Shown here in pieces: positions 1 to 12,701 of a DNA stretch of 13,238 nucleotides; positions within the stretch are counted from its first letter, which is position 1; every line of letters begins with the position of its first letter. A model generated the notes under the pieces. It was not told where the DNA came from and made no database searches. It was given only the letters and a program-made list of their open reading frames with translations. The DNA comes from a virus (lineage: Duplodnaviria; Heunggongvirae; Uroviricota; Caudoviricetes), in the IMG/VR virus record IMGVR_UViG_2526164633_000018, positions 1 through 13,238 of that record. One strand, 5' to 3'. A program made the position numbers and the translations under genes.

Positions 1-4
1 GGGA

Positions 5-322
5 ATGACGTTCCCGGAACTGTATGACGACAGCCATCCGGAAGCCCTGGCCCGTAATACCCAGAAAATTTTCCGTTGGCTGGATAAAGACACCCCTGAT
101 GCTGTTGAAAAAATGCAGGCTCTGTTACCGGCGATCGAAAAGGCGATGCCGCCTTTGCTGGTGGCCCGTATGCGCAGCCACAGTTCTGAATATTACCGTG
201 AGATCGTCGAACGGAGGGATCGGCTGGTGAAGGATGTCGATGATTTTGTTGCGTCAGCGGTTGTTTTGTATGACCAGATGAATCGCGGCGGCCCGGCAGG
301 GAATGCTGTGGTGATGCACTAA
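5..322 (+). CDS. Phage early-region protein, probably 5'-truncated at the window edge; possibly a CII/YdaT-like regulator
   Basis: Reading frame is open back to nt 2 with no visible RBS, so the true start probably lies upstream of the window. Stop TAA at 320-322. It sits directly upstream of the replication initiator, as ydaT does in Rac-type modules. The family assignment is inference from position only. Confidence 0.4.
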   Translation: MTFPELYDDSHPEALARNTQKIFRWLDKDTPDAVEKMQALLPAIEKAMPPLLVARMRSHSSEYYREIVERRDRLVKDVDDFVASAVVLYDQMNRGGPAGNAVVMH

Positions 323-344
323 AAGCACGGTGTTCGGGGGTTTT

Positions 345-1493
345 ATGAGCAGCAAGCTTCATGGTCTTGTCTGGGAAGGGTGCGCCTTCACCGGCATGAT
401 CTTATCCAGGGTGGCGGTTATGGCCCGTCTTGCAGACTACAGCAATGACGAGGGCGTGTCATGGCCTGCCATTGAAACTATCCGGCGTCAGATCGGTGCA
501 AGAAGTGAATCCACAGTGAAATCGGCTATTGCAGAACTGGCGAAAGAGGGCTGGCTGACGAAGGAAGAGCGTAAGGTCGGTGGGCGTAATGTAAGCAATA
601 TCTATCGGCTTAATGTGGAAAAACTCGAAGCAGCTGCGGCGGCGGCGCGTGAGTCATATAAACCGAAAAGAAAAATTAGCCCGGCAAAAAATGACCCGTT
701 AACAGTTGACCCGTCAAATATTGACCCCTCAACGGTTGACCCGTCAAATTTTGATGGATCAACTGTTGATAAAAAACTGCCGATTAGGGGGGCGATGATT
801 GACCCCGATCCGTCAGTATTAAAACCTGATCCGTCAGATAAAAGATCTTCTTGTCCGGACGCTTCGCAACCGGACCCGCAGACGGCTGAACAGGATTTTT
901 TAACCCGACACCCTGACGCGGTTGTGTTCAGTGCGAAAAAACGCCAGTGGGGAAGTCAGGAAGATTTGGTGTGCGCACAGTGGATCTGGGGACGAATCGT
1001 GAGTCTTTACGAGCAGGCGGCCAGCGATGATGGCGAGATCACTAGACCGAAAGAACCCAACTGGACAGCATGGGCCAATGACGTTCGCACAATGCGGATG
1101 CTGGATGGCAGAACTCACAGACAAATTTGTGAAATGTTTGGGCGTCTCCAGCGGGATTCGTTCTGGGTAAAAAACATCATGAGTCCGGCAAAACTCCGGG
1201 AAAAATGGGATGAACTGGTTATCCGCCTGGGGCGTTCGCCTGCGCAGCGTTGCGTGAATCACATTTCTGAACCGGACACTGAAATACCGCCGGGATTCGA
1301 GGGGGTGACGTGTCATGAAAAACATTGCGGCAGGTTGGGGTTCTTGAACGTATTCGCAGACTTGCACCGACAGGGGTCGCTCCACCGTACCGGACGGTGG
1401 AGGAGTGGCGGGAATGGCAACTTGCTGAAGGACGAAAACGCAGCGAGGAGATTAACCGCCAGAATCGCCAGTTGCGGGTGGAAAAAATCCTGA
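345..1493 (+). CDS. Replication initiator (O-like): N-terminal HTH domain plus a C-terminal region resembling primosomal protein DnaT
   Basis: ATG at 345 follows a G-rich SD (cggggg, 335-340); the six-frame ORF opens at GTG 330. The N-terminus (ARLADYSNDEGVSWPAIETIRRQIGARSESTVKSAIAELAKEGWL) looks like an HTH. The C-terminal motif SEPDTEIPPGFEG matches my recollection of the DnaT C-terminus (…SEPDSQIPPGFRG). The last ~60 codons (VTCHEKHCGRLG…) are rich in C/H/R/G/W and look like an out-of-frame read-through into the next gene. Confidence 0.7.
   Translation: MSSKLHGLVWEGCAFTGMILSRVAVMARLADYSNDEGVSWPAIETIRRQIGARSESTVKSAIAELAKEGWLTKEERKVGGRNVSNIYRLNVEKLEAAAAAARESYKPKRKISPAKNDPLTVDPSNIDPSTVDPSNFDGSTVDKKLPIRGAMIDPDPSVLKPDPSDKRSSCPDASQPDPQTAEQDFLTRHPDAVVFSAKKRQWGSQEDLVCAQWIWGRIVSLYEQAASDDGEITRPKEPNWTAWANDVRTMRMLDGRTHRQICEMFGRLQRDSFWVKNIMSPAKLREKWDELVIRLGRSPAQRCVNHISEPDTEIPPGFEGVTCHEKHCGRLGFLNVFADLHRQGSLHRTGRWRSGGNGNLLKDENAARRLTARIASCGWKKS
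692..766 (+). repeat. Iteron array inside the initiator gene: five tandem 15-bp repeats (TGACCCGTCAANNNT consensus), putative origin of replication
   Basis: Direct repeats tgacccgttaacagt / tgacccgtcaaatat / tgacccctcaacggt / tgacccgtcaaattt / tgatggatcaactgt, each with an internal TGAC..GTCA dyad. An A-rich stretch (tgataaaaaactg) and two gatccgtcag repeats follow at 767-830. At protein level this encodes the (V/I)DPS(N/T) repeat. Lambda's ori lies inside O in the same way. Confidence 0.55.
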
Positions 1494-2062
1494 ATCGTTC
1501 GGGCATCCAGCCTCTGCACAGCAAATGCTCGTTTGCAAATTATCAGGTGCAGAACGACGGGCAAAAATACGCGCTGAGCCAGGCCAAATCCATAGCTGAC
1601 GAACTGATGACCGGGTGCACGAATTTTGTGTTCAGCGGTAAAACCGGCACCGGGAAAAATCACCTTGCAGCGGCGATGGGCAACCGGCTGATGGTGAAGG
1701 GGCGCAGCGTGATTATCGTCACCGTGTCTGACGTCATGAGCGTGTTGCATGACAGCTACGACAACGGCAAATCCGGGGAAAAATTTTTACAGGAGCTTTG
1801 CGGGGTTGATTTGCTGGTCCTGGATGAAATAGGCGTTCAGCGGGAGACGAAAAACGAGCAGGTGGTATTGCACCAGATAATTGATCGCCGGACAGCATCA
1901 CTGTGCAGTGTCGGGATGTTAACAAACCTGAATCATGCCGCAATGAGTACGCTTCTTGGTGAGAGGATTATGGACCGCATGACCATGAACGGTGGTCGAT
2001 GGGTGACGTTTAACTGGGATAGCTGGCGTCCAAATGTCAGCAATATGAGGGTTGTGAAGTAA
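1325..2062 (+). CDS. DnaC-like helicase loader (AAA+ ATPase, IstB/DnaC family); start uncertain and N-terminus apparently frame-disrupted
   Basis: Collinear similarity to E. coli DnaC as I recall it: Walker A FSGKTGTGKNHLAAA, Walker B LLVLDEIG, C-terminal WVTFNWDSWR. The six-frame ORF opens with TTG at 1325 with no SD. A well-placed ATG at 1315 (SD gaggggg 1299-1305) encodes MKNIAAGWGS then stops, in a different frame. Stop TAA at 2060-2062. Confidence 0.75.
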   Translation: MRQVGVLERIRRLAPTGVAPPYRTVEEWREWQLAEGRKRSEEINRQNRQLRVEKILNRSGIQPLHSKCSFANYQVQNDGQKYALSQAKSIADELMTGCTNFVFSGKTGTGKNHLAAAMGNRLMVKGRSVIIVTVSDVMSVLHDSYDNGKSGEKFLQELCGVDLLVLDEIGVQRETKNEQVVLHQIIDRRTASLCSVGMLTNLNHAAMSTLLGERIMDRMTMNGGRWVTFNWDSWRPNVSNMRVVK

Positions 2063-2083
2063 TTTTGTCCGGAGGAAATTTTA

Positions 2084-2287
2084 ATGGAAACCGTATCTGA
2101 CGCACTGAAAGCACTGAAAAAAGCCTCTTCACATGTGGTGGCAGCTCGCCTTGGAATCAGTCGTGAAGAGGCTGTCAACGAGCTGTGGGAACTCAAAAGA
2201 AATGGCGTCGTTGATAAAACTGGTCACACCTGGTTCTGGCTGGCGAAGGTGAATCCGGGTAACCGAAGAGCGGCCAGTAAAATCTGA
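2084..2287 (+). CDS. Small hypothetical protein (67 aa), winged-helix-like
   Basis: ATG at 2084 follows SD GGAGG (2071-2075) with 8-nt spacing. Motif [19 protein letters not shown] resembles an HTH. Compact genes on the same strand on both sides. Confidence 0.55.
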
Positions 2288-2297
2288 AGCACAGGAT

Positions 2298-2552
2298 ATG
2301 CTGACCGGGGAGGTCGAACAAAAAGTTACCGCAGACATGATGATTGAGTTTATCGGTCAGGATGGGGCTAAAACGTGTGAGGAACTGGCGGGTAAGTTCG
2401 GTGTCAGTACTCGCAAGGTTGCTTCCACGCTGGCGGTGGTAACCGCAACGGGGCGGCTGGCACGCGTTAATCAGAACGGTAAATTTCGTTACTGCATGCC
2501 GGGCGATAATTTACCAGCAGAGCCGAAAAGCCGCGCTGGTAACGGAAAGTGA
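2298..2552 (+). CDS. Small hypothetical protein (84 aa), winged-helix-like paralog of the preceding ORF
   Basis: ORF immediately follows the previous gene. Motif ELAGKFGVSTRKVASTLAVVTATG is HTH-like. The SD is weak, and an in-frame ATG at 2337 is an alternative start. Confidence 0.5.
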   Translation: MLTGEVEQKVTADMMIEFIGQDGAKTCEELAGKFGVSTRKVASTLAVVTATGRLARVNQNGKFRYCMPGDNLPAEPKSRAGNGK

Positions 2553-2634
2553 TGGTAAGGCCTTTCCTCAGCCAGCAGGTGCTGCGTTACCAGGCCGGGA
2601 AGCCGCAACACAGGAAGAAATTAAAACAGAAACT

Positions 2635-2853
2635 GTGGCGGACATTGTGCAGTCGTTGCCATCGTTTACCGAAACGCAAGCAGATGAGCTGATTTTTCCG
2701 TCCCTGCGCAGGGCAAACCTGGCGCTGCGCAGGGCGAAAAGTGATGTTCAGAAGTGGGAGCGAGTCTGCGCCGCGCTGCGGGAGCTGAACAAGCACCGGG
2801 ATATTGTTCGACAGATTACTGATTCTTCCCGCCGTGTTGTATCGGAAAAGTGA
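2635..2853 (+). CDS. Hypothetical protein (72 aa)
   Basis: ORF with a GTG start and no convincing SD. It fills the gap between flanking genes on the same strand, but the start and reality of the gene are uncertain. Confidence 0.3.
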   Translation: MADIVQSLPSFTETQADELIFPSLRRANLALRRAKSDVQKWERVCAALRELNKHRDIVRQITDSSRRVVSEK

Positions 2854-2868
2854 TTGCCGGAGGCGCTT

Positions 2869-3291
2869 ATGGCAAAAGTATTTACACAAGAAGAGCGGGA
2901 AAAAATTAAAGGGCAGGTTGTTGAGCTAGTACGCCGGAGTGGGCGCGAGACGTTACGGCAACTGGAAGCCAAGACAGGTGCGACAAGATATCTGATGAGT
3001 GTTCTCGCCAGAGAGCTGGTTGCCAGTGGCGATGTATACAACTCTGGTTACGGGTTATTCCCGTCTGAACAGGCGCGTAAGGACTGGCAAAACGCCCGCA
3101 AAAAACTCTCAAGGGCAAATCTGAAGAAACCATCTGTGGTTGATCCTGACCTTATCTGGCCATTACCAGACGGAGAAATACGCCGCTACGACAGGCGTCA
3201 AAACATAATCTGTAGCGAGTGCCGGAAGAGCGAAGCTATGCAGCGTGTACTGGCTTTCTATCAGGGTAATTTTCAGAAGGTGCTGTTGTGA
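2869..3291 (+). CDS. Hypothetical protein (140 aa) with an N-terminal winged-helix-like region and a C-terminal Cys-containing segment
   Basis: ATG at 2869 follows SD GGAGG (2859-2863); the six-frame ORF opens 5 codons earlier at 2854. Motif LRQLEAKTGATRYLMSVLARELVASG. Stop TGA at 3289-3291. Confidence 0.55.
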   Translation: MAKVFTQEEREKIKGQVVELVRRSGRETLRQLEAKTGATRYLMSVLARELVASGDVYNSGYGLFPSEQARKDWQNARKKLSRANLKKPSVVDPDLIWPLPDGEIRRYDRRQNIICSECRKSEAMQRVLAFYQGNFQKVLL

Positions 3292-3396
3292 GCCAAATTA
3301 ACAATCGGAACTTCGTGAAGAGAAAGCATAATCCAAATCTGAATAATTAAGTTCAGCACTGTAAATAAAATTTAATCCTTAACTGGAGGTATATCT

Positions 3397-3609
3397 ATGT
3401 CAAATACACAGAAAATTATTAACACTGAAAAATATAACGAGTGGGTGAAAAAATTCTCTGAGCAGATTTTTAAAATTACTGGCGACGAGAATGTGGCAAA
3501 AAATGAATTGGAACCGTGGACACCTGAAGGAAACGCACCAAATTATTGCTGGTGGGAGGTTGATCCGGTTGATGCTGCAAATGAAGCCATGAGTTACCAC
3601 AACGATTAA
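3397..3609 (+). CDS. Cassette gene A1: small acidic hypothetical protein (70 aa)
   Basis: Strong SD (ctggaggt) 7 nt upstream of ATG 3397. Intact paralog at 4663-4875 with about 9 of 70 residues different. Stop TAA at 3607-3609. Confidence 0.6.
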   Translation: MSNTQKIINTEKYNEWVKKFSEQIFKITGDENVAKNELEPWTPEGNAPNYCWWEVDPVDAANEAMSYHND

Positions 3610-3641
3610 TGTCGGGAGGCCGCCCGAAAGGGCGGTAAGAA

Positions 3642-3860
3642 ATGACTACATTATTCAGAAAAGAATATCCGCAAAAAAGTAGGGCGACAGAATTTTTGTT
3701 TCTCATTCTGTTTATCGTATTGATGATACCGATATCCCCTCTAATTTTTGTCTGGGCAATCGGGAAAATAATTGAGCCAGTTACTGAATTGTATAACGAC
3801 GTGGTATGGGCGTCATTCAACACACTGCACAATAAAATTAATCCGTATAAGGAAAACTGA
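3642..3860 (+). CDS. Cassette gene B1: small membrane protein (72 aa, one predicted TM helix)
   Basis: ATG at 3642 lies just downstream of a GC hairpin (gccgccc-gaaa-gggcggt) that follows a gggagg motif. Hydrophobic core FLFLILFIVLMIPISPLIFVWAIG. Stop TGA at 3858-3860 sits 1 nt before the next ATG. Confidence 0.5.
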   Translation: MTTLFRKEYPQKSRATEFLFLILFIVLMIPISPLIFVWAIGKIIEPVTELYNDVVWASFNTLHNKINPYKEN

Positions 3861-3861
3861 T

Positions 3862-4124
3862 ATGGCAACTTTGACAAAAAAGAACGGGCATGGTTGAACG
3901 AATTACAGGAAGTTCTTGATCGCTGTCCATCACCGAAAAAAATTGGCTTTTACACCATTGGCGATAAAAGCATTTACCTGTATGACCTACGCCGCATGGA
4001 TGAAATCATGGAGGCTCTTGATAATCGTTCGTCGATGGATTGGTGTGTTGCTGTTCATGATATGAATGCAGGGTTTGATGAAAAGATTTTGTTCCCCTCA
4101 TCAGTTGAAAGCACTGCGGGTTAA
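3862..4124 (+). pseudogene. Cassette gene C1, frameshifted in an A-tract (A6 here versus A7 in the intact paralog)
   Basis: ATG 3862 with the same SD context as C2, but atg gca act ttg aca aaa aag aac ggg cat ggt tga stops after 11 codons. The rest of the protein (NELQEVLDRCPSPKK…STAG) is intact in the +1 frame from TTG 3894. The paralog at 5127-5390 reads MATLTKKERAWLNELQ… uninterrupted. Confidence 0.45.
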
Positions 4125-4255
4125 GGAGTAACACATGACCACTATTACCAAAGAACGTATTGAATTGTTCATTAAATTTTCAGGAGGCGGTACTGTGAGT
4201 GAAATTAGCTATCAGGCTTCAATTACCGCTGGCATTCGCATCAAAGGAGAGGAGC

Positions 4256-4612
4256 ATGGAAATAAAACCAGAGGATGAGTTAAGCAATATCGTTTTATTT
4301 CCGGTAAAAGAGGATGACCCTCGTAATCAGGTTAATTTTCTTTATGAGCCATCGGAAAGACCATATTGCCATCACGCCTCTGTTCGGGTTGACGAAAAAG
4401 AGCGTCAGGTCCGCTGTAAAATCTGCGGTGCAGTTGTGGAGCCGTTTGACTGGATGCTCTCTGTGGCGAAAAGAGAAACCAGACTGGCAGATGATGTAAG
4501 GCTATTGCGCCAGGAGGAACAGGAAAGGCGGAAAAATATAGAAAAGTTAATTCAGATTGAGCGTAACGCGAAAGCGCGGATACGCAGGGCGACAAAATCC
4601 AGAACTGAATAA
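4256..4612 (+). CDS. Hypothetical zinc-ribbon-like protein (118 aa) with a basic, probably coiled-coil C-terminus
   Basis: ATG 4256 follows SD aggagaggag (4244-4253). Motifs PYCHH…CKICG are candidate metal ligands. C-terminus is rich in R/K/E/Q. Lies in the unique segment between the two cassette copies. The six-frame ORF opens upstream at 4199. Confidence 0.55.
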   Translation: MEIKPEDELSNIVLFPVKEDDPRNQVNFLYEPSERPYCHHASVRVDEKERQVRCKICGAVVEPFDWMLSVAKRETRLADDVRLLRQEEQERRKNIEKLIQIERNAKARIRRATKSRTE

Positions 4613-4662
4613 ATAAATTTAGCGCTGTAAATAAAATCTAATCCTTAACTGGAGGTATATTT

Positions 4663-4875
4663 ATGTTAAATACACAGAAAGCCATTAATGCGGAAAAATA
4701 TAACGAGTGGGCAAGAAAATTCTCTGAGCAGATTTTTAAAATTACTGGCGATGAGAATGCGGCAAAAAATGAATTAGAACCGTGGACGCCTGAAGGAGCC
4801 GACCCAAATTATTGCTGGAGGGAGGTTGATCCAGTTGATGCTGCAAATGAAGCTATGAGTTATCACAACGATTAA
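4663..4875 (+). CDS. Cassette gene A2: small acidic hypothetical protein (70 aa), paralog of A1
   Basis: Same SD (ctggaggt) and start context as A1. Protein is about 87% identical to A1 by eye. Confidence 0.6.
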   Translation: MLNTQKAINAEKYNEWARKFSEQIFKITGDENAAKNELEPWTPEGADPNYCWREVDPVDAANEAMSYHND

Positions 4876-4907
4876 TGTCAGGAGGCCGCCCGAAAGGGCG
4901 GTAATGA

Positions 4908-5124
4908 ATGGTCACATTATTTAGAAAAAATATCCGCGAAAGAGTAGAACAACAGAATTTCTGTTTCTCATTCTGTTTATCGTGTTGATGATACCGATAT
5001 CCCCGTTAATCCTAGCCTGGATAATCGGAAAAATAATTGAGCCAGTTATTGAATTGTATAACGACGTGGTATGGGCGTCATTCAACACACTGCACAATAA
5101 AATTAATCCGTATAAGGAAAACTG
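4908..5124 (+). pseudogene. Cassette gene B2, frameshifted by a 1-nt deletion in an A-rich tract
   Basis: ATG 4908 aligns with the B1 start. U1 reads agaaaagaatatccg where U2 reads agaaaaaatatccg, so the frame runs MVTLFRKNIRERVEQQNFCFSFCLSC then stops at 4986-4988. The TM-encoding remainder is only open in another frame, ending at TGA 5122-5124. Confidence 0.4.
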
Positions 5125-5126
5125 AT

Positions 5127-5390
5127 ATGGCAACTTTGACAAAAAAAGAACGGGCATGGTTGAACGAATTACAGGAAGTTCTTGATCGCTGTCCATCACC
5201 GAAAAAAATTGGCTTTTACACCATTGGCGATAAAAGCATTTACCTGTATGACCTACGCCGCATGGATGAAATCATGGAGGCTCTTGATAATCGTTCGTCG
5301 ATGGATTGGTGTGTTGCTGTTCATGATATGAATGCAGGGTTTGATGAAAAGATTTTGTTCCCCTCATCAGTTGAAAGCACTGCGGGTTAA
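5127..5390 (+). CDS. Cassette gene C2: hypothetical protein (87 aa), the intact copy
   Basis: ATG 5127 follows SD aaggaaaa. The six-frame ORF opens upstream at 5037 and includes this sequence. Stop TAA at 5388-5390. Confidence 0.6.
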   Translation: MATLTKKERAWLNELQEVLDRCPSPKKIGFYTIGDKSIYLYDLRRMDEIMEALDNRSSMDWCVAVHDMNAGFDEKILFPSSVESTAG

Positions 5391-5400
5391 GGAGTAACAC

Positions 5401-6270
5401 ATGACCACTATTACCAAAGAACGTATTGAATTGTTCATTAAAAATCCGCTTGAAAACGGGCTTACCCGTGGTGAACAAATGGAACTGGCACGGATTGCGC
5501 TGGCATCGCTGGAAGCAGAGCCGGTGGCAAAGATTATAGCTCATTACCCATTAGGGGTTGACGTAGGCAAACAAAAATTCGTACAGGCCATTAGAGAGCT
5601 TCCTGACTTTGGCGGATATCTATTTGCCGCCCCTCCAGCGCCGATAGTGCCGGAAGAAATGTATTGGCAGGATGCGCCAGTTGAAGGCAGCAGCAAAGCG
5701 ACTGCATACGCTACAGGCTGGAACGATTGCCGCGAAGCCATGCTTCAGTCCGGAAACTTTCGGGAAAATAAAGATTCGTCAACCAATAATTTTCGGAAAA
5801 TCCCGGAAGCGTCAACCAGCTCTCCGGTAACTCCGGCTCTTCTGCCTGGTGGTTTCACCATTGAGGAGGCGAAGGAATTACATGAAGACCTGGTACGCAG
5901 CCACATAAGCAAGGCCTTAAGTGGCGAAAAGATGAAAAAGAAAGATCGCGATGCTGATTTGCGCTGGATTCATGGCGTTATAGTTCAGGCAGCGTGGTTT
6001 GTAAAAGCATCACTGGAGCAGAATGCACTATCGGGCAACTATCCGGTAACTCCGGATAGTTGGATAAGCTGTAGTGAGCGAATGCCGGATACCAAAACAG
6101 CCGTTCTTGTTGCCAGGGATTTTGGCAGGAAAGGTGACTGGCGAATGAAATGGGCGACTTACATCCCGGGGCATCCTGACGCTAATGATGGGTGGATAAT
6201 ACCTGGTGCGTCGTGGATACCATCACACTGGATGCCTCTACCAGAACCGCCGCAGGAGGTGCGCCAATGA
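5401..6270 (+). CDS. Phage protein with a C-terminal DUF551-like domain (289 aa)
   Basis: ATG 5401 follows SD aaggag. The C-terminal segment (WISCSERMPD…VLVA…W…PSHWMPLPEPP) matches the DUF551 pattern as I recall it from lambdoid nin-region proteins. Stop overlaps the next small ORF. Confidence 0.65.
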   Translation: MTTITKERIELFIKNPLENGLTRGEQMELARIALASLEAEPVAKIIAHYPLGVDVGKQKFVQAIRELPDFGGYLFAAPPAPIVPEEMYWQDAPVEGSSKATAYATGWNDCREAMLQSGNFRENKDSSTNNFRKIPEASTSSPVTPALLPGGFTIEEAKELHEDLVRSHISKALSGEKMKKKDRDADLRWIHGVIVQAAWFVKASLEQNALSGNYPVTPDSWISCSERMPDTKTAVLVARDFGRKGDWRMKWATYIPGHPDANDGWIIPGASWIPSHWMPLPEPPQEVRQ

Positions 6271-6350
6271 ACTGGCCTGAAGCATTTGCAATTACAGGCG
6301 TTGCTATGGCTATCGCTTTTTTAGTATATGTTATTTGTCGGTGGGGGTAA
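6267..6350 (+). CDS. Possible micro-ORF encoding a 27-aa hydrophobic peptide
   Basis: ATG 6267 overlaps the stop of the upstream gene (aATGA). Peptide MNWPEAFAITGVAMAIAFLVYVICRWG has a single TM-like segment. Below usual gene-calling size, so low confidence. Confidence 0.3.
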   Translation: MNWPEAFAITGVAMAIAFLVYVICRWG

Positions 6351-6385
6351 AAACGTTCGCCGGGATTAACACCAAAGGAGGGAAT

Positions 6386-6490
6386 ATGTCGGATGATATA
6401 TCACTGGCAATGGAAGGTGCGCTGGCTGTTGTTGCTGTTGTGGGTGTTTACTGCCTGGTTGTGTTTTTGATGGAGCGCCTGGGGAACTGA
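6386..6490 (+). CDS. Possible micro-ORF encoding a 34-aa hydrophobic peptide
   Basis: Strong SD aaggaggg (6375-6382) before ATG 6386. Peptide MSDDISLAMEGALAVVAVVGVYCLVVFLMERLGN has an acidic N-terminus and a TM-like core. Confidence 0.4.
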   Translation: MSDDISLAMEGALAVVAVVGVYCLVVFLMERLGN

Positions 6491-6531
6491 ATTCATTCCG
6501 TATGGGAATTCCCATATCGGGTAAAAACGGT

Positions 6532-6559
6532 TTGCGGTAAAGCGAGAGTTAAGTAGAAT
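6532..6559 (+). promoter_or_regulatory. Putative sigma70 promoter of the hok mRNA
   Basis: -35 TTGCGG (6532-6537), 16-bp spacer, -10 TAGAAT (6554-6559). The predicted 5' leader begins …gcttgaggctatctgcctcagg, which resembles the conserved hok mRNA 5' element as I recall it. Confidence 0.45.
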
Positions 6560-6619
6560 TGCTGCGGGTGCTTGAGGCTATCTGCCTCAGGCATGAACAC
6601 CAAAAGGCAGATAGAGAAA

Positions 6620-6690
6620 AGCCCCAGTTAACATTACGCGTCCTGCAAGACGCTTAACATTAATCTGAGGCCCAATCTATGTCTCACAAA
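6620..6690 (-). ncRNA. sok: Putative Sok-like antisense RNA; boundaries approximate
   Basis: On the minus strand there is a promoter-like -35 TTGCCT (complement of 6717-6722), 17-bp spacer and -10 TAACCT (complement of 6694-6699). The transcript would be antisense to the upstream ATG at 6679 and its SD. Inferred from hok/sok locus organisation; ends not determined. Confidence 0.3.
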
Positions 6691-6735
6691 TGTAGGTTAG
6701 CCTCTTACGTGCCGAAAGGCAAGGAGAAGCAGGCT

Positions 6736-6891
6736 ATGAAGCAGCAAAAGGCGATGTTAATCGCCCTGATCGTCATCTGTTTAACCGTCATAGTGACGGC
6801 ACTGGTAACGAGGAAAGACCTCTGCGAGGTACGAATCCGAACCGGCCAGACGGAGGTCGCTGTCTTCACAGCTTACGAACCTGAGGAGTAA
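6736..6891 (+). CDS. hokD: Hok/Gef-family type I toxin (51 aa), HokD/RelF-like
   Basis: Translation MKQQKAMLIALIVICLTVIVTALVTRKDLCEVRIRTGQTEVAVFTAYEPEE matches the Hok family (TM helix plus the conserved periplasmic tail) and, from memory, HokD/RelF specifically. SD aaggagaag lies upstream. The six-frame ORF opens at an upstream in-frame ATG (6679). Confidence 0.85.
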   Translation: MKQQKAMLIALIVICLTVIVTALVTRKDLCEVRIRTGQTEVAVFTAYEPEE

Positions 6892-6958
6892 GAGACCAGG
6901 CGGGGGAGAATCCCTCGCCACCTCTGATGTGTCAGGCATCCTCAACGCACCCGCACTT

Positions 6959-6985
6959 AACCCGCTTCGGCGGGTTTTGTTTTTT
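6959..6985 (+). terminator. Rho-independent terminator ending the hok transcript
   Basis: Stem aacccgc / gcgggtt with loop ttcg, followed by ttttgtttttt. Confidence 0.6.
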
Positions 6986-7057
6986 CCTAGCATTCTGGTT
7001 TACAATTCGCACGCCAGCCTGAACAACTGGCACCTGCTGCGCCAGCAGAGACAACCG

Positions 7058-7336
7058 ATGGCGCACGATACCAAATTACACAATTCTGATGATTCTGCCG
7101 TCTTTGCCAGCAGGCACGGGCGGCGTTCCCGCACTTTCAAATCTGACTGGTTCCAGCATCCCCCATGCACTGAAGAACAGGCCGAGTGGCTAATTCAGTG
7201 CTACCGCAGACACGGATACGAGATTAAGAAAGCCCTCAGCCTCGATTATCGTCACTGGATAATCTCCGTCAGGCTTCCTTACTCCGAGCGCCCACCGCGT
7301 CCGTCCCGCACATTCCAGCAACGCATCTGGAGGTAA
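7058..7336 (+). CDS. Hypothetical protein (92 aa); by position possibly equivalent to the Qin-prophage rem gene
   Basis: ATG 7058 lies inside a longer six-frame ORF (6929-7336) whose upstream part overlaps the hok terminator. It sits between hok and the DUF968 gene, as rem sits between hokD and ydfU in Qin. The rem assignment is from synteny only. Confidence 0.45.
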   Translation: MAHDTKLHNSDDSAVFASRHGRRSRTFKSDWFQHPPCTEEQAEWLIQCYRRHGYEIKKALSLDYRHWIISVRLPYSERPPRPSRTFQQRIWR

Positions 7337-7337
7337 C

Positions 7338-8387
7338 GTGCGGGTATTACTTCGACCTGTTCTGGTACCGGAACTCGGGCTGGTGATCGTTAAGCCGGGC
7401 CGTGAATCCATGCCGGTATTCCACAATACCCGGGTACTGGTGGAGCCGGAACCGAAAAGCATGCGTAATCTGCCGTCCGGGGTTGTTCCTGCCGTTCACC
7501 AGCCGCTAGTGGAAGACAAAACATTGCTGCCGTTTTTCAGTAACGCACGGGTGATTCGTGCTGCTGGTGGTGCTGGTGCATTGTCTGACTGGCTGTTGCG
7601 CCATATTAAATCCTGCCAGTGGCCACACGGCGATTATCATCACAGCGAAACCGTCATTCACCGTTATGGTACCGGCGCAATGGTGTTGTGCTGGCACTGC
7701 GACAACCAGCTGCGTGACCAGACATCCGAATCACTCGGGCAACTTGCTCACCAAAATTTGTCAGCATGGATGATTGACGTCATACGCCATGCAATGAATG
7801 GCACGCAGGAGCGGGAATTATCTCTGGGTGAATTATCCTGGTGGGCGGTCTGCAATCAGGTGGCGGACGCGCTTCCGGAGGCAGTATTACGTCGTTCTCT
7901 GGGGTTACGTGCGGAAAAAATCCGCCCCTTGTACCGCGAAAGCGACATCGTACCGGGAGAGCAGACCGCCATCAGCATACTGAAACAGCGCACAAAAAAT
8001 CTTGCGCCGCTGCCTCACGCCCACCAGCAACAGAACCCACCACAGGAAAAGACGGTGGTCAGCATTGCCGTTGATCCTGAGCCTCCGGAATCTTTCATGA
8101 AACGACCTAAACGTCGCCGCTGGGTTAACGAGAAATACACACGCTGGGTGAAGACTCAGCCGTGTGCGTGTTGTGGTAAGCCAGCCGACGATCCCCATCA
8201 CCTGATTGGTCATGGTCAGGGCGGAATGGGGACAAAATCTCACGATATTTTCACGCTACCGCTGTGTCGGGAGCATCACAACGAGCTTCATGCGGATCCG
8301 CTGGCGTTCGAAGAAAAGCATGGCTCTCAGGTTGATTTAATTTTTCGTTTTCTTGATCACGCCTTTGCAACTGGCGTGCTTGGGTAA
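7338..8387 (+). CDS. DUF968-type phage protein (YdfU-like, 349 aa) with a C-terminal HNH-like Cys/His motif
   Basis: GTG 7338 follows SD GGAGG (7330-7334). C-terminus …WVKTQPCACCGKPADDPHHLIGHGQGGMGTKSHDIFTLPLCREHHNELH has HNH-type spacing of Cys/His ligands. Position between hok and rusA/Q matches Qin-like synteny. Confidence 0.7.
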   Translation: MRVLLRPVLVPELGLVIVKPGRESMPVFHNTRVLVEPEPKSMRNLPSGVVPAVHQPLVEDKTLLPFFSNARVIRAAGGAGALSDWLLRHIKSCQWPHGDYHHSETVIHRYGTGAMVLCWHCDNQLRDQTSESLGQLAHQNLSAWMIDVIRHAMNGTQERELSLGELSWWAVCNQVADALPEAVLRRSLGLRAEKIRPLYRESDIVPGEQTAISILKQRTKNLAPLPHAHQQQNPPQEKTVVSIAVDPEPPESFMKRPKRRRWVNEKYTRWVKTQPCACCGKPADDPHHLIGHGQGGMGTKSHDIFTLPLCREHHNELHADPLAFEEKHGSQVDLIFRFLDHAFATGVLG

Positions 8388-8399
8388 AAGAGGTGACTG

Positions 8400-8774
8400 A
8401 TGCTCATAGATTTGGTTTTACCTTACCCGCCAACGGTGAACACCTACTGGCGACGTCGTGGCAGCACATATTTTATCTCGGAGGAGGGAAAGCGTTATCG
8501 CCGGGCTGTGGCGCTTATTGTTCGCCAGCAGCGGCTGAAATTAATCCTGTCCGGAAGGCTGGCGATAAAGGTGATTGCAGAGCCACCGGATAAGCGTCGT
8601 CGCGACCTGGACAATATCCTGAAAGCACCGCTGGATGCGCTGACGCATGCGGGAGTGTTAATGGACGATGAGCAGTTTGATGAAATCAATATCGTTCGTG
8701 GTCAGCCAGTATCTGGTGGACGTCTGGGGGTGAAGATTTACCCCATAATGCTTGAAGGGCAGGTCAAAAAATGA
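8400..8774 (+). CDS. rusA: RusA-family Holliday-junction resolvase (124 aa)
   Basis: ATG 8400 follows SD agaggtg. Motif PDKRRRDLDNILKAPLDALTHAGVLMDDEQ matches the RusA catalytic region (recalled E. coli RusA …PDRRRRDLDNLQKA…). Stop overlaps the next gene start (ATGA at 8771-8774). Confidence 0.85.
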   Translation: MLIDLVLPYPPTVNTYWRRRGSTYFISEEGKRYRRAVALIVRQQRLKLILSGRLAIKVIAEPPDKRRRDLDNILKAPLDALTHAGVLMDDEQFDEINIVRGQPVSGGRLGVKIYPIMLEGQVKK

Positions 8775-9592
8775 AACTGGAAGATTTACCGAAATACTAC
8801 TCCCCAAAATCCCTCGGCCTGACTGATGCATCGGCCTCAACGTCGAAAGATACGCTGAGTATCACTGATGTGATGGCCGCGCAGGGCATGACACAGAATT
8901 GGGCTGAGATGGGGTTTTCTGCGTTCCTTGGGAAAATGGGCATTAGTATGAATGACAGAGAGCGGGCAACAGAATTGCTGACAGAATATGCACTCAGTCG
9001 GTGTGATCGCGTGGCGGCGTTAAGAAAACTCCCGGCAGAAATAAAACCGGCAGTGATGCGTATTATGGCTTCGTATGCGTTTGAAGATTATGCCCGTAGC
9101 GCGGCGAGCAAAAAACAGTGCCCCTGTTGTCACGGAAAAAAATTTATTGAAAGCGAGGTTTTTACAAACAAGATCCAGTATCCGGATGGTAAGCCGCCAG
9201 TGTGGGCAAAGTGCACAAAAGGAGTGTATCCGTCTTACTGGGAGGAATGGAAAAAAGTCAGGGAGGTGGTAAAAGTTGCCTGTCCGGAGTGTGGAGGGAA
9301 GGGAGAGGTATCCACTGCCTGTAAAGATTGTCGTGGGCGCGGTGTTGCCATTCATCGTGAAGAGTCGGTAAAACGTGGTATGCCTGTTATCAGAGACTGC
9401 CAGCGTTGTGGTGGTCGTGGCTATGAAAGATTACCTTCAACGGAGGCATTTAATGCCATATGTAATGTAACCGATGCCATATCTCTTGATACATGGAAAA
9501 AAACAGTTAAACGTTTTTACGATACGCTGGTGGTGCAGTTTGATATTGAAGAAGCATGGGCAGAACAACAACTGAAAAAGGTGACCAGATAG
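8771..9592 (+). CDS. Lambda-type late antiterminator Q (273 aa), longer than lambda Q
   Basis: Collinear with lambda Q as I recall it: SPKS…TDVMAA.GM…YA(F/Y)(E/A)DY.RSAA…Cys-rich zinc motifs…(F/L)YD.LVVQ…VTR at the C-terminus. It is followed immediately by a lambda PR'-like sequence. Confidence 0.85.
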   Translation: MKLEDLPKYYSPKSLGLTDASASTSKDTLSITDVMAAQGMTQNWAEMGFSAFLGKMGISMNDRERATELLTEYALSRCDRVAALRKLPAEIKPAVMRIMASYAFEDYARSAASKKQCPCCHGKKFIESEVFTNKIQYPDGKPPVWAKCTKGVYPSYWEEWKKVREVVKVACPECGGKGEVSTACKDCRGRGVAIHREESVKRGMPVIRDCQRCGGRGYERLPSTEAFNAICNVTDAISLDTWKKTVKRFYDTLVVQFDIEEAWAEQQLKKVTR

Positions 9593-9597
9593 CTTTG

Positions 9598-9633
9598 TTG
9601 ATTTTTCCCGAATCTGTGGTAAATTTGCCCTAA
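9598..9633 (+). promoter_or_regulatory. Late promoter PR' with probable qut / pause-inducing region
   Basis: -35 TTGATT (9598-9603), 16-bp spacer, -10 TAAATT (9620-9625). The segment ggtaaatttgccctaacgatggg closely resembles lambda PR' (ggtaaatttgactcaacgatggg, from memory). Predicted start is about 9632-9633. Confidence 0.6.
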
Positions 9634-9673
9634 CGATGGGCGTTTTATGCCTGACGTTAGAAGATTTTTTACA

Positions 9674-9696
9674 CCCGTCGCCAGGCGGGTTTTTTT
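9674..9696 (+). terminator. tR'-like rho-independent terminator downstream of PR'
   Basis: GC-rich hairpin cccgt / gcggg with a 6-nt loop, followed by T7 (9690-9696). Sits about 60 nt downstream of the predicted PR' start. Confidence 0.5.
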
Positions 9697-9741
9697 ATGA
9701 CTGAAATCACGCCAGTACAGTAAACGCGCTGGTGGTTGTGA

Positions 9742-10192
9742 ATACCGGTCTTTCAGCTTGCTGGCTTTTTCGACAAGAGTTATTGGTGTGTCACGTTAAC
9801 CGGAAAAAGGAAAGTTTGAGAAACGCGATCTGGCACAGGCGGTTATTAATGCTGCCTACCTGGTGGCCTGTGCAGATGGTGAATGTGAGGCTTCCTAGAA
9901 AGCGAAGATCGAACAGGTACTGCGTAATCAGCCTGCGCTGTCCGCGTTTACGTCAGAAATTAATGCGATTAGCGCAACCATTATCGGTCAGCTGGATACG
10001 AACTTTAAAACTGGTCGTCGTGCGGCGTTACGTGAGATCGAGGATGTGAAACACGATACGCGTGAAGCGGAAGATGTGCTGGATGTGGCGGTGGCCATTG
10101 CGGAGGCAGACGGCGAAATTGAGCCGGAAGAGCGCAAGGTGCTGGAAGAGATTGCCGGTGTTCTGGGTCTTCGTCTGGAGAATCACCTGTGA
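9742..10192 (+). pseudogene. Decayed TerB-like (tellurite-resistance TerB / DjlA-N-type) gene with an in-frame amber stop, a frameshift and no start codon
   Basis: Frame 2 reads …DLAQAVINAAYLVACADGECEAS*KAKIEQVL…AVAIAEADGEIEPEERKVLEEIAGVLGLRLENHL, showing two ADG-E…E repeats typical of TerB domains. A TAG at 9896-9898 falls where the second repeat has Glu. Upstream the frame closes at TAA 9797-9799 with no start, and the N-terminal-like segment GFFDKSYW… is in frame 1. Confidence 0.45.
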
Positions 10193-10320
10193 CGGTAAAA
10201 CTGCGCCTGGCTGTGGCTGCACTCCTGCTGTTTCTGGTGGTGATGGTGGATTTCACCAGCAGAATCATGTCGGTGCTGGCGGATGGGGTGCTGGTCTGCG
10301 GCATTGTGGTATTGCTGTAG
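10189..10320 (+). CDS. Possible small membrane protein (43 aa)
   Basis: GTG 10189 overlaps the TerB-like stop (GTGA) and follows SD ggaga (10176-10180). Peptide VTVKLRLAVAALLLFLVVMVDFTSRIMSVLADGVLVCGIVVLL is hydrophobic throughout. Not listed as its own ORF in the six-frame track; expression is uncertain given the upstream pseudogene. Confidence 0.3.
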   Translation: MTVKLRLAVAALLLFLVVMVDFTSRIMSVLADGVLVCGIVVLL

Positions 10321-10516
10321 CCGGTGATAAAAAGAAACAGCCTGCATAATGCTTGATTTTTTTATTTGCTGTTTATTAAAAATACTACTGCATGGTGAAT
10401 CCCCCTGTGCGGAGGGGCAATCAGCAAGTAGGTATATGTGATAATCGCGGATTCAGGTGCTGATACTGAATTCACCGGGAGGCACCCGGCACCATGCAAG
10501 AAAAAGAATGTGCATG

Positions 10517-10548
10517 CAAAAATGCCCCTCTCCGGAGGGGCATTTTTT
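10517..10548 (+). terminator. Strong rho-independent terminator, potentially bidirectional
   Basis: A-tract caaaaat, then 7-bp stem gcccctc / gaggggc with loop tccg, then atttttt. A second hairpin (gcccgaa-tggg-ttcgggc, 10562-10579) preceded by taaaaaa follows and is oriented for the minus strand. Confidence 0.6.
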
Positions 10549-10762
10549 ATGGGTAAAAAATGCCCGAATGGGTTCGGGCAATAGCATGAGATACTGATAT
10601 TGTTGTGTTGTTATCGTGTGGATTTTAACCAGGGTTTATCAGGCTGCGCAACTGCGTGGCCTTCTTCATTTCTTGGGCTGTAGTCCCCGTGTGTCATTCA
10701 GGCTTCCGGACTACAGCCCACTCCATATCTGATTTAATACACTATCCCGGCCGGGAGGAATA

Positions 10763-12616
10763 ATGACATTTAAACATTATGATGTTGTCAGGGCGGCGTC
10801 GCCGTCAGACCTTGCGGAAAAGCTGACACACAAACTGAAAGAGGGCTGGCAGCCGTTTGGTAGTCCGGTGGCCATAACCCCTTATACCCTGATGCAGGCG
10901 ATTACAGCAGAAGGTGATGTGGTGGTCAGTGGTGCAACTGAGCCGGATTGGTACTACGTCATCGTACTGGCCGGGCAGTCCAATGCCATGGCTTACGGTG
11001 AAGGGCTTCCGCTGCCGGATTCATACGATGCTCCGGATCCGCGCATTAAACAGCTGGCGCGCCGCAGTACAGTGACGCCGGGTGGGGCTGCCTGCAGATA
11101 TAACGATATTATTCCGGCCGACCACTGCCTGCATGATGTGCAGGATATGAGTACGCTGAATCATCCGAAGGCAGACCTGAGCAAAGGGCAGTACGGCTGT
11201 GTCGGCCAGGGCTTACATATTGCCAAAAAACTGCTTCCGTATATCCCGAATAACGCGGGGATCCTGCTGGCACCATGCTGTCGTGGTGGTTCGGCATTCA
11301 CCCAGGGCGCGGAGGGGACATTCAGTGCGGACACGGGGGCCAGCCAGGATTCGGCACGCTGGGGTGTGGGTAAACCGTTATATCAGGACCTGATTGCGCG
11401 CACTAAAGCTGCATTACAGAAGAACCCGAAAAATGTGTTGCTGGCGGTGTGCTGGATGCAGGGAGAGTTTGACATGAGCGCCGCCACCTACGCACAGCAA
11501 CCTGCGCTGTTTACAGCCATGCTGAAGCAGTTTCGTGCTGACCTCACTGTGTTTAACGCGCAGTGTCATGGTGGCAGTGCTGCAGATGTGCCGTGGATTT
11601 GTGGTGACACGACGTATTACTGGAAAAATACATACGCTACCCAGTACGACACCGTGTACGGCGGGTATAAAAACAGGGAGAGTGAGGGCGTTTATTTTGT
11701 GCCCTTCATGACAGACGGTAACGGCGTCAATACCGCCACTAACGCGCCGGCAGAAGATCCGGATATTCCGGCATCAGGATATTACGGTGCGGCATCGAGA
11801 ACGAATGGAAACCAGGTATCATCAAACCGCCCGACACATTTCAGTTCATGGGCGCGCAGGAGCATTATTCCGGATCGTCTGGCAACCGCTATTCTGAACG
11901 CAGCCGGGCGCACCTCAGCCTTCATCAGTGGTAAGGCACCGGAAATCAAACCCTCGCCCGGCGGCAACACGCCATCGGGTCCGTCTGCAGATACGTCCGT
12001 TCGCACAATCTCCCTGCTGCCGGCAGCCGGAGAGGCTGCTGCGCAGGGCTGGAGCATTAAGGATGGCGGAATTCAGTTGTCAGATGGTGTATTTAAGATC
12101 ACCAAGCAGAGCAATAAAACCTGGTCCCTGACGCATCCGGTGGATGACGCAATTACCCTGCTGACACAGGGCGGCAGACTGACCTGTAAGTTCCGCCTGT
12201 CAGGCGCACTGACCAACAATCAGTTCGGGCTGGGGATTTATCTGTATACGGATGCTCCCGTTCCTGATGGTGTGGCGATGACGGGTACCGGTAATCCGTT
12301 CCTGATGTCGTACTTCACTCAGACCACTGACGGCAGAGTGAATCTGATGCATCACAGGAAAGCCGGAAACACGAAGCTGGGGGAGTTCGGCGATTACGGT
12401 AACGACTGGCAGACGCTGGAGCTGGTGTTCACCGCCGGCAGTGCCACGGTTACTCCGAAACTGAATGGAGTGGCTGGCCCGGCATTCCAGGTTATAAAAG
12501 ACGGTCTGACACTGGGACTGAATGCGCTGACGCTGACGGATGTTACAAAAAATGCAGCGTATGGCGTTGAGATAGAAAGTCTGGTGCTGGAGATAAATGC
12601 ACCGGCATCATCATAA
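10763..12616 (+). CDS. Prophage sialate O-acetylesterase, NanS-p-like (617 aa): N-terminal DUF1737-like region, SGNH/SASA esterase domain, C-terminal extension
   Basis: ATG 10763 follows SD gggagg. N-terminus MTFKHYDVV…; esterase motif YVIVLAGQSNAMAYGEG (the GQSN block of sialate esterases). Size and position (after Q, before the holin) match nanS-p genes of Stx-type lambdoid phages. Confidence 0.8.
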   Translation: MTFKHYDVVRAASPSDLAEKLTHKLKEGWQPFGSPVAITPYTLMQAITAEGDVVVSGATEPDWYYVIVLAGQSNAMAYGEGLPLPDSYDAPDPRIKQLARRSTVTPGGAACRYNDIIPADHCLHDVQDMSTLNHPKADLSKGQYGCVGQGLHIAKKLLPYIPNNAGILLAPCCRGGSAFTQGAEGTFSADTGASQDSARWGVGKPLYQDLIARTKAALQKNPKNVLLAVCWMQGEFDMSAATYAQQPALFTAMLKQFRADLTVFNAQCHGGSAADVPWICGDTTYYWKNTYATQYDTVYGGYKNRESEGVYFVPFMTDGNGVNTATNAPAEDPDIPASGYYGAASRTNGNQVSSNRPTHFSSWARRSIIPDRLATAILNAAGRTSAFISGKAPEIKPSPGGNTPSGPSADTSVRTISLLPAAGEAAAQGWSIKDGGIQLSDGVFKITKQSNKTWSLTHPVDDAITLLTQGGRLTCKFRLSGALTNNQFGLGIYLYTDAPVPDGVAMTGTGNPFLMSYFTQTTDGRVNLMHHRKAGNTKLGEFGDYGNDWQTLELVFTAGSATVTPKLNGVAGPAFQVIKDGLTLGLNALTLTDVTKNAAYGVEIESLVLEINAPASS

Positions 12617-12701
12617 AAAGTGAGCCAGTCAAATGGAAGGTATCGTTAAACTCACCGGTAGTGTCAGTGGGTCGTCTGAGATGCCTGCATGAGTTATCAG
12701 A

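Follow-up and report, generated by a model that had tools for sequence, protein, structure and literature searches.

Recombination between permuted prophage mosaics as the probable origin of a doubled block of accessory genes in a lambdoid Escherichia coli prophage

Does a block of three small genes that occurs twice, in diverged form, within a phage accessory region represent a functional cassette, or a product of the exchange that shapes lambdoid prophages? The question is raised by the window analyzed here, a 13,238-nt stretch that makes up positions 1 to 13,238 of IMG/VR record IMGVR_UViG_2526164633_000018, in which genes designated A, B, and C occur on both sides of a gene for a putative Zn-ribbon protein (Zn). 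As set out below, the arrangement is probably a tandem duplication produced by recombination in the early accessory region of a Rac/Qin-type lambdoid E. coli prophage, with A, B, and C as separate accessory genes.

The repeat and its genes

The two copies form a direct repeat on the + strand, with copy 1 at 3327-4176, copy 2 at 4593-5442, and a period of 1266 nt. A sequence-only reading of this DNA had described collinear copies of ca. 840 bp with ca. 90% identity on either side of a unique zinc-ribbon gene. The collinearity is real and Zn is indeed single-copy and flanked by both segments, but the copies start ca. 10 nt to the left of the boundaries originally given, and the identity is not uniform. 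The 5' part (3327-3784, 458 nt) has 55 substitutions and 1 indel, or 87.8% identity, whereas the 3' part (3785-4176, 392 nt) is nearly 100% identical, with 0 substitutions and one indel, a run of six A residues (3876-3881) in copy 1 versus seven (5141-5147) in copy 2; overall identity is ca. 93%. The probability of finding 0 substitutions in 392 nt at the mean divergence is ca. 1e-11, and thus the mosaic structure of the repeat is real. The repeat also runs on for 42 nt into the start of the DUF551 gene downstream (4135-4176 is identical to 5401-5442).

The claim that each copy encodes A, B, and C holds for four of the six genes. A1 (3397..3609, +) is an intact gene for a 70-aa acidic protein that matches phrog_4659 over its full length (E 4.8e-51); A2 (4663..4875, +) is likewise intact, encoding 70 aa, 87% identical to A1 (dN 0.070, dS 0.35). 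B1 (3642..3860, +) encodes an intact 72-aa protein with a single transmembrane (TM) segment that belongs to DUF4014/phrog_1832, scoring 91.3 bits against PF13198 (cut-off 23.2) over model positions 1-72 of 72. C2 (5127..5390, +) encodes an intact 87-aa protein of the phrog_1714 family, with a match over the whole protein (E 9.5e-51). The other two genes are frameshifted in poly-A runs. B2, the second DUF4014 gene (4908..5125, +), carries a 1-nt deletion that leaves A6 at 4925-4930 where the intact allele has A7; the defect is annotated as 'frameshifted' in the E41 prophage and was found in 23 fetched loci, versus 13 with the intact allele. In C1, the phrog_1714 gene of copy 1 (3862..4124, +), the A6 run at 3876-3881 brings in a stop at 3895-3897 after 11 codons, and the remainder is readable from a TTG at 3894 as 76 aa. 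This A6 allele also occurs in an independent contig of the same lineage (IMG/VR 2526164633_000012), whereas other loci have A7. Thus, the redundancy of the doubled block is already decaying. Purifying selection on the three genes (pN/pS 0.22 for A, 0.24 for B, and 0.09 for C) argues that A, B, and C are genuine protein genes. Two further candidates were set aside. The exact 76-aa C1 product is present in 832 Shigella sonnei contigs, but a S. sonnei origin was rejected since its context there is different, the product being due to an IS3-family insertion 12 nt upstream rather than to a frameshift. Minus-strand open reading frames over B (3476-3877 and 4921-5199) were dismissed because their lengths differ between the copies.

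The sequence-only reading had also placed conserved hairpin and Shine-Dalgarno (SD) elements between the genes. This holds only in part: there is one strong hairpin per copy, in the A-B spacer; the B-C and C-Y spacers (Y being the DUF551 gene), of 1 and 10 nt, have SD sequences but no hairpin. The first hairpin (3619..3636, +) is a GC stem capped by a GAAA loop that separates the A1 stop from the B1 start (-18.8 kcal/mol, z -3.4), and 0 of 200 shuffles fold as well; the second (4885..4902, +) has -19.7 kcal/mol and z -3.65. The same element is present at other gene junctions. Its stem is followed by AAGAAAUG rather than a U-tract, and a terminator scan made no call. Shuffled sequence yields at least as many promoter- and terminator-like sites, and between the genes the + strand has none. 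Given this and the close spacing, A, B, and C would be read as part of a delayed-early transcript, which would run rightward here and from pL (exo-xis region) in Stx phages.

Parental prophage types and the crossover

Each half of the array has a close counterpart among known prophages. Window positions 80-4655 are collinear with a prophage of ATCC 25922 (98.95% identity), making copy 1 (3327..4176, +) an ATCC 25922-type allele block, and positions 4175-6324 are collinear with the E41 prophage (99.5% identity), making copy 2 (4593..5442, +) an E41/CB9615-type allele block. The first type, found in ATCC 25922, O104:H4, and ST131, has the order DUF977-A-B-C-Y'-Zn-DUF7167, and the second, found in E41 and O55:H7 CB9615, has the order DUF977-Zn-A-B-C-DUF551; both are widespread prophage mosaics in which the same small genes are permuted. 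At informative sites the window follows ATCC 25922 up to and including 4187 and E41 from 4503 on, with 4623 as the only later ATCC-type site; the parental signal is mixed at 4444 and 4456. The switch therefore falls between 4187 and ca. 4444-4503, which defines a crossover interval (4188..4503, +) inside the shared Zn-ribbon gene region. Comparison of the A-B-C blocks of the two parents shows 57 differing sites, confined to the first 489 nt, and identity over the remainder. Gene conversion between the copies was accordingly rejected as the cause of the identical 3' part, the parental types being already identical there.

The flanks record an older event as well. The DUF977 gene (X; 2854..3291, +; PF06163, 107.7 bits) is the left neighbor in both parental orders and precedes the A/B/C/Zn genes in most of 237 IMG/VR loci. 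Y' (4135..4176, +) is a remnant of the DUF551 gene, comprising its first 42 nt (14 codons), and opens a chimeric 47-aa reading frame (4135-4278) annotated in ATCC 25922 as a hypothetical protein. Next comes the 3'-terminal 22 nt of a DUF977 gene (4177..4198, +; stop at 4196-4198), recognizable from the repeat of 3268-3306 at 4175-4213; homology to E41 begins at 4175, within the E41 DUF977 coding sequence. The two remnants are joined by an old illegitimate junction. The Y'-Zn junction is 100% identical among 73 complete E. coli genomes, counting those in which 80% or more of the 211-nt query is present. The DUF551 gene Y (5401..6270, +; PF04448, 69.1 bits) is the right neighbor. A genuine hok/sok locus occurs 1.1 kb downstream.

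Zn itself (4256..4612, +), the single-copy recombination substrate, encodes a putative 118-aa Zn-ribbon protein with a coiled-coil tail that matches phrog_1621 over its full length (E 1.5e-56). Its score against the TFIIB Zn-ribbon (PF08271) is 21.5 bits, under the cut-off of 29, and C37-H38-H39 with C54-x2-C57 offers a possible CHCC site; a PDB sequence search found no relative. This exact protein appears in 8273 blocks of the searched collection, in diverse gene contexts, and the gene is under purifying selection (pN/pS 0.09).

The near-identical Zn-ribbon stretch of ca. 480 nt (4175-4655) could have misled an assembler into joining two separate lambdoid prophages of the source genome, one per arrangement, in which case the cell would have no tandem array. 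The contiguous order C-Y'-Zn-A was not found in 5,426 complete E. coli genomes, IMG/VR, GTDB representatives, or JGI metagenomes, which leaves the present sequence as the sole example of the tandem array. Scans for the exact Y'-Zn junction together with the start of A2 had no match in IMG/VR, GTDB representatives, or JGI metagenomes; among the complete E. coli genomes the closest relatives are all single arrangements, matches that cover both junctions being two permuted pieces, and look-ups by the DUF551 and Zn proteins returned single arrangements only. E. coli genomes often contain several such prophages, at up to 8 places per genome, and the closest draft contig ends inside the repeat at window position 3928, which implies at least two C copies in that genome although not their adjacency. 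The window also has at least five private homopolymer indels, of the kind typical of error-prone reads, and a shifted stretch at ca. 1369-1380, all absent from a 99.7%-identical relative and from ATCC 25922, which points to an error-prone assembly. Homopolymer indels stand at 1299, 1333, 2233, 2254, and 2526, besides the runs at 3876-3881 and 4925-4930. However, long reads, the technology that would best explain homopolymer errors, easily span a 480-nt repeat; the C1 frameshift was seen only in this lineage, as fits relaxed selection on a redundant copy; and analogous tandem products (X-Z-A-Z-A, A-B-C-C, and C-Y-C, with Z for Zn) were found in independent contigs among the 237 loci, so that real recombinants of this kind do occur. 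We regard a chimeric assembly as unlikely.

Families and assortment of A, B, and C

The sequence-only reading recognized no function for any of the three proteins. B proved to be a Pfam DUF4014 protein, and A and C have full-length PHROG matches; none of these families has a known function, phrog_4659 (A), phrog_1714 (C), and phrog_1621 (Zn) all being annotated 'unknown function'. A appears to be a small acidic helical protein, for which AF2 predicts three helices (pLDDT 81). HMMER searches of 1.84 billion representatives gave 8 matches to A, with only two distant full-length relatives (46-47% identity), and its family is restricted to Escherichia/Shigella. B has one predicted membrane helix, with a predicted N-in, C-out topology. 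Its homologs include 933W L0067 and Salmonella phage epsilon15 gp46, DUF4014 proteins with which B1 shares both its length (72 aa) and the single predicted TM helix, and gp46 has the same neighbors as B, namely Ead/Ea22 upstream and DUF551 downstream. Database labels for DUF4014 ('released from the phage upon host infection', 'acetyltransferase inhibitor') could be traced to no experiment, and the transacetylase repressor of epsilon15 is annotated on a different gene, gp28. A literature search for DUF4014, L0067, or the PHROG label returned no papers. For C, whose family spans the Enterobacterales, prediction confidently gives a small alpha/beta fold, to which no solved structure is related; a BFVD fold search matched it to one unnamed 93-aa protein. 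PDB sequence searches with A, B, C, and Zn gave nothing under E = 0.03.

The idea of a three-gene unit is not supported by comparison across loci. The 237 IMG/VR loci include many in which A, B, or C stands alone or in other combinations (Z-A-Y, Z-B-Y, Z-C-Y, Z-A-B, and B-C), and in the window itself 2 of the 6 reading frames are broken. The proteins are very common: of 5,426 complete E. coli genomes, 2,607 have part of this region, and it also occurs in Stx phages; 933W and ArgO145 have the genes flanked by exo/bet on one side and xis/int on the other. A conserved operon would show synteny across the taxonomic range of its members, and many alternative architectures are observed instead. Thus, A, B, and C assort independently of one another rather than as an obligate cassette, although some functional linkage may exist.

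We also weighed the proposal that A-B-C is one soluble-plus-membrane module, acting in superinfection exclusion, as toxin and antidote, or in anti-defense, with the doubled array kept because its alleles broaden specificity. Consistent with such a module, A-B-C is the order seen most often in close alleles (62 of 80 loci anchored on C, 47 of 78 on B, and 43 of 79 on A), the genes are closely packed, with a 1-nt gap between B and C, all three genes are under purifying selection, and B has a single predicted membrane helix, as do several known exclusion proteins. Against it, each gene is found without the others in many loci. A is about half as frequent as B and C (150, 285, and 292 relatives, respectively) and taxonomically confined, whereas C ranges across the Enterobacterales, its distant homologs in Edwardsiella, Pectobacterium, Serratia, and Klebsiella having neither A nor a DUF4014 gene as neighbor. 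With one gene broken per copy, neither copy is complete. PADLOC, NCBIfam, Pfam, PDB sequence, and fold searches gave the proposed roles no support: PADLOC-DB 2.0 had no match for A, B, C, DUF551, or DUF977 and only a chance-level one for Zn (E 0.03), and no toxin or antitoxin family in Pfam, NCBIfam, or PADLOC matched A, B, C, or Zn. Prophage toxin-antitoxin, exclusion, and kill modules (RelBE, YdaS/YdaT, Hok/Sok, SieB, and KilR) are likewise small early-region reading frames with one membrane peptide. However, A, B, and C have no sequence or profile similarity to them, have no detected promoter or antisense RNA of their own, and each occur alone, in contrast to the obligate partner co-occurrence expected of type II toxin-antitoxin systems. 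A joint module is therefore improbable. We give equally little credence to the related reading in which A, B, and C together, or B and C alone, form an undescribed early phage module, membrane-anchored via DUF4014 and employing a small alpha/beta protein, that alters the host envelope or blocks superinfection. If that reading were true, the doubling of alleles and the later loss of one B and one C would indicate dosage sensitivity.

Origin of the duplication and its meaning

In-situ tandem duplication of Zn-A-B-C by unequal crossing-over, with the copies diverging afterward, would account for direct repeats with a 1266-nt period, but it is scarcely credible, because the two copies, each taken together with its flanks, match two different extant prophage types at 99% or more, a copy-to-copy dS of ca. 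0.33 in A and B beside 0 in C is impossible by clock-like divergence after one event, and the same mosaic exists between the separate parental genomes. The sequence-only reading was right to attribute the divergence to recombination between alleles rather than to recent duplication in place: the copies and their flanks belong to different prophage types, and the crossover maps in the Zn-ribbon gene. We infer that a single homologous crossover within this shared gene left an A-B-C block on either side, and that the two blocks are old alleles, as the dS of A and B suggests.

Recombinational duplication of this kind resembles what is known of lambdoid mosaic accessory regions (the exo-xis or 'ea' region of lambda, 933W, and Phi24B, and the nin region), where homologous recombination at shared genes or junctions shuffles the content; here the exchange took place within a shared gene, that for the Zn-ribbon protein. 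The exo-xis region has a gene set that varies in number and kind, with known duplications (PMC8614690). Like it, the block consists of small, tightly packed, presumably non-essential early genes, and the same genes occur in the exo-xis region of Stx phages, 933W L0067 being B. Unlike it, the block belongs to the rightward early operon, with the replication genes on one side and DUF968/RusA/Q on the other instead of exo and xis, and A, B, C, and Zn are not among the characterized exo-xis genes (orf60a, orf63, orf61, orf73, ea22, and ea8.5). Judging from gene position and the analogy to those characterized genes, A, B, and C are most likely individually dispensable early accessory proteins, which may act on the host or on the lysis-lysogeny balance.

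The duplication is thus ordinary phage mosaicism, not a new system. For annotation, an apparent 'diverged duplication' of this sort is no evidence of a functional cassette, and assigning functions to A, B, and C would add modestly to the understanding of such early regions in Stx and related prophages. The locus offers a traceable example of how lambdoid prophages may gain local gene duplications, through a crossover in one gene shared by permuted mosaics, and of how the copies may then decay through homopolymer frameshifts.

The repeat and its prophage setting

The window corresponds to the early-right part of an Escherichia coli lambdoid prophage of the Rac/Qin type. A YdaT-like C-terminus is followed by an O-like replication gene, a DnaC-like gene, a split DUF1627 gene and the block under study, which is bounded on the left by DUF977 (2854-3291) and on the right by DUF551 (5401-6270); beyond it come hok/sok, DUF968, RusA, a Q-like antiterminator, the sRNAs STnc100 and AgvB, a SASA-family esterase and a holin. 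Within the O-like gene, an iteron-like array (671-767), the presumed prophage origin, combines TTGACCCGT-type units at 15-nt spacing (671-745) with an inverted repeat (701-767). The hok/sok type I toxin-antitoxin locus spans 6566-6891, with an Rfam sok match (121.7 bits) at 6566-6741 and a Hok-like ORF (MKQQKAMLIALIVICLTVIV...) ending at 6891. The sRNAs lie back to back at 10364-10616, between the antiterminator and the esterase: STnc100 at 10364-10554 on the + strand (146 bits) and AgvB, an anti-GcvB sRNA, at 10555-10616 on the - strand (96.5 bits). The window has no stx genes between Q and the 617-aa SASA-family carbohydrate esterase (10763-12616), and close relatives carry a SASA/DUF1737/DUF6645 esterase in the equivalent place. 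The next ORF (12689-12982) is presumably the holin.

A direct repeat with a period of 1266 nt (3327-4176 and 4593-5442) flanks Zn, a single-copy putative zinc-ribbon gene (4256-4612). The sequence-only reading described this as two collinear copies about 90% identical; the collinearity stands, but the identity is not uniform. Base-by-base comparison of both copies showed a mosaic, with 87.8% identity over 3327-3784 (55 substitutions and one 1-nt indel), followed by 392 nt (3785-4176) in which the sole difference is a 1-nt indel (A6 at 3876-3881 versus A7 at 5141-5147). The 3' end of the repeat reaches 42 nt into the DUF551 gene (4135-4176 equals 5401-5442). Each copy contains genes A (70 aa), B (72 aa) and C (87 aa), all preceded by a Shine-Dalgarno sequence. 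The gene content described earlier is only partly right, as two of the six genes are broken: B of the second copy (B2) terminates early because one A is missing from the poly-A run at 4925-4930, and the A6 run of C in the first copy (C1) leads to a stop after 11 codons. The B2 frameshift is already annotated in E. coli E41 and occurs in 23 fetched loci (the intact A7 allele is found in 13); it is older than the recombination event described below. Among the fetched loci compared, only the window and its sister contig, 2526164633_000012, carry the C1 frameshift, which is the expected outcome of relaxed selection on a redundant copy. The 76-aa ORF that remains of C1 is also widespread in Shigella sonnei, where the cause is an IS insertion: in chromosomes of this species, an IS3-family element 12 nt upstream of the same internal TTG of gene C leaves an identical truncated product. 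In these chromosomes A and B are inverted and lie ca. 2.5 kb away, adjoining IS1; thus, the S. sonnei prophage is heavily rearranged.

Origin of the duplicated block

Most E. coli genomes matching this region cover both query copies with a single 1.35-1.4 kb stretch, and so carry one A-B-C block. Two orders are common. The order DUF977-Zn-A-B-C-DUF551 occurs in E41, O55:H7 CB9615 and others, whereas ATCC 25922, O104:H4 2009EL-2071 and ST131 strains have DUF977-A-B-C-Y'-Zn-DUF7167, in which Y', a 42-nt DUF551 remnant, abuts the terminal 22 nt of a DUF977 gene at a TAA/A microhomology. The window is collinear with the ATCC 25922 prophage over 80-4655 (98.95%) and with the E41 prophage over 4175-6324 (99.5%), and the only gene in the overlap is Zn. 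At informative sites the window is of the ATCC 25922 type up to and including 4187 and of the E41 type from 4503, with the exception of 4623, which is ATCC-type; the sites at 4444 and 4456 are a mix of the two types. The earlier proposal of recombination between alleles is therefore upheld, with flanks matching two prophage types and the switch mapped to Zn. Given these flanks and this switch, a single homologous crossover inside Zn, between two permuted mosaics, would yield the observed A-B-C/Zn/A-B-C structure.

It is unlikely that the array is instead an assembly chimera. In favour of a chimera, the contiguous order C-Y'-Zn-A was not found in 5,426 complete E. coli genomes (best matches: two permuted pieces), in GTDB representative genomes, in JGI metagenomes or in IMG/VR, where 21 contigs contain the Y'-Zn junction and none has A next. 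The window also carries at least five private homopolymer indels (1299, 1333, 2233, 2254 and 2526), and a shifted stretch at ca. 1369-1380 probably reflects another. These indels fuse or shift the boundary of the O-like and DnaC-like genes and break DUF1627 up into three ORFs (2084-2287, 2298-2552 and 2635-2853). They are absent from ATCC 25922 and from contig 2526164633_000012, the nearest relative of the left part (99.67% identity over 1-3928), from which the window differs by one substitution; this ratio suggests sequencing errors rather than pseudogenisation, and the source assembly is thus probably error-prone. The sister contig has the A6 frameshift of C1 as well. It breaks off at 3928, within the identical part of the repeat, which shows that its genome has at least two copies of C, although adjacency is not implied. 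Against a chimera, independent IMG/VR contigs (within L084-L240) carry these small genes in other local tandem duplications (X-Z-A-Z-A, X-A-B-C-C-Y and C-Y-C, with X, Y and Z denoting DUF977, DUF551 and Zn). Recombination between permuted mosaics is recurrent in this region.

The crossover also accounts for the uneven divergence of the copies, a pattern inherited from the parents: the parental A-B-C blocks differ at 57 sites, all in the first 489 nt, and are identical beyond. Gene conversion after recombination is unneeded, because the parental genomes already share the identical 3' part. In-situ duplication followed by divergence is excluded, since dS between the copies, ca. 0.33 in A and B, falls to 0 in C. 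Overall, known gene families of uncharacterised function stand here in a new arrangement that textbook lambdoid mosaic recombination produced, with a small remaining chance that it is an assembly artefact.

The spacer between DUF977 and the first A gene (3292-3345) resembles both the Zn upstream region (3268-3306 versus 4175-4213, 77%) and the final 20 nt of the Zn reading frame (3327-3345 versus 4593-4611). The order lacking Zn seems to have arisen from DUF977-Zn-A by deletion.

Independence of A, B and C

Conserved hairpins had been described between the genes of each copy. This holds for the A-B junction of both copies, but the B-C spacer is merely 1 nt (C and the next gene are 10 nt apart). 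The A-B hairpin, GCCGCCC-GAAA-GGGCGGU, is an 18-nt, GC-rich element with a GNRA loop, located between the A stop and B start at 3619-3636 and 4885-4902 (ca. -19 kcal/mol, z ca. -3.5); no U-tract follows it in either copy. GGGAGG immediately 5' of the stem would lie near the B start codon only if the stem is folded. Among distinct contexts in the fetched loci (L004-L293), the hairpin separates A from B in 42, precedes B with no A beside it in 12, follows A with no B beside it in 11 and adjoins neither gene in 26; it looks like a boundary element, perhaps mobile, rather than part of a fixed unit.

In IMG/VR, A has 150 relatives, B has 285 and C has 292. A-B-C is the commonest arrangement among close alleles, and each gene is also found without the others (X-Z-A-Y, X-Z-B-Y, X-Z-C-Y, Z-A-B, B-C, and B followed by HNH). 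Distant C homologues adjoin neither A nor DUF4014, the family of B: in Edwardsiella C lies in the recT-int region, in Pectobacterium directly 3' of gpA in a P2-like prophage, in Serratia near int, and in Klebsiella between an upstream replication gene and a downstream Q. From these placements and those of the hairpin, we take A, B and C to be accessory ORFs that are shuffled independently of one another; the three-gene cassette of the first reading is not supported.

Protein families and likely role

Purifying selection acts on all four genes, with a population pN/pS of 0.22 in A, 0.24 in B, and 0.09 in both C and Zn. B matches Pfam DUF4014 (phrog_1832) over its full length and is homologous to 933W L0067 and epsilon15 gp46. 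Its basic N-terminus, single hydrophobic helix and acidic C-terminal tail suggest a bitopic inner-membrane protein, N-in and C-out. Databases label B "released from the phage upon host infection" and "acetyltransferase inhibitor", but we could trace no supporting data in the literature. A (phrog_4659) is confined to Escherichia/Shigella, and a search of 1.84 billion representatives turned up two distant relatives; three helices are predicted (pLDDT 81), and a fold search gave generic matches only. C (phrog_1714) ranges across the Enterobacterales and has a confident predicted alpha-beta-beta-alpha-alpha-beta fold (pLDDT 90.7). Zn (phrog_1621), with a possible CHCC knuckle and a basic coiled-coil tail, is very common and occurs in varied contexts. 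No solved relative of the four proteins was found by sequence, and none matched PADLOC, NCBIfam or any toxin/antitoxin family, leaving the defence and toxin roles once suggested for A, B and C unsupported.

The genes of the block are tightly packed and share one direction. Between 2800 and 6400, promoter-like and terminator-like sites are no more frequent than in shuffles, and none lies between genes on the + strand. In 933W and ArgO145 the same genes are found between exo/bet and xis/int, a stretch that forms the variable distal portion of the exo-xis region. Transcribed early from pL and dispensable under laboratory conditions, the exo-xis region affects lysogenisation and induction and includes duplications (PMC8614690, PMC3824215). 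Based on the packing, the lack of + strand signals and this placement, we infer that A, B and C would be delayed-early accessory proteins made from read-through transcripts after infection or induction, each of which may act alone, either on some target in the host or on the balance between lysis and lysogeny.
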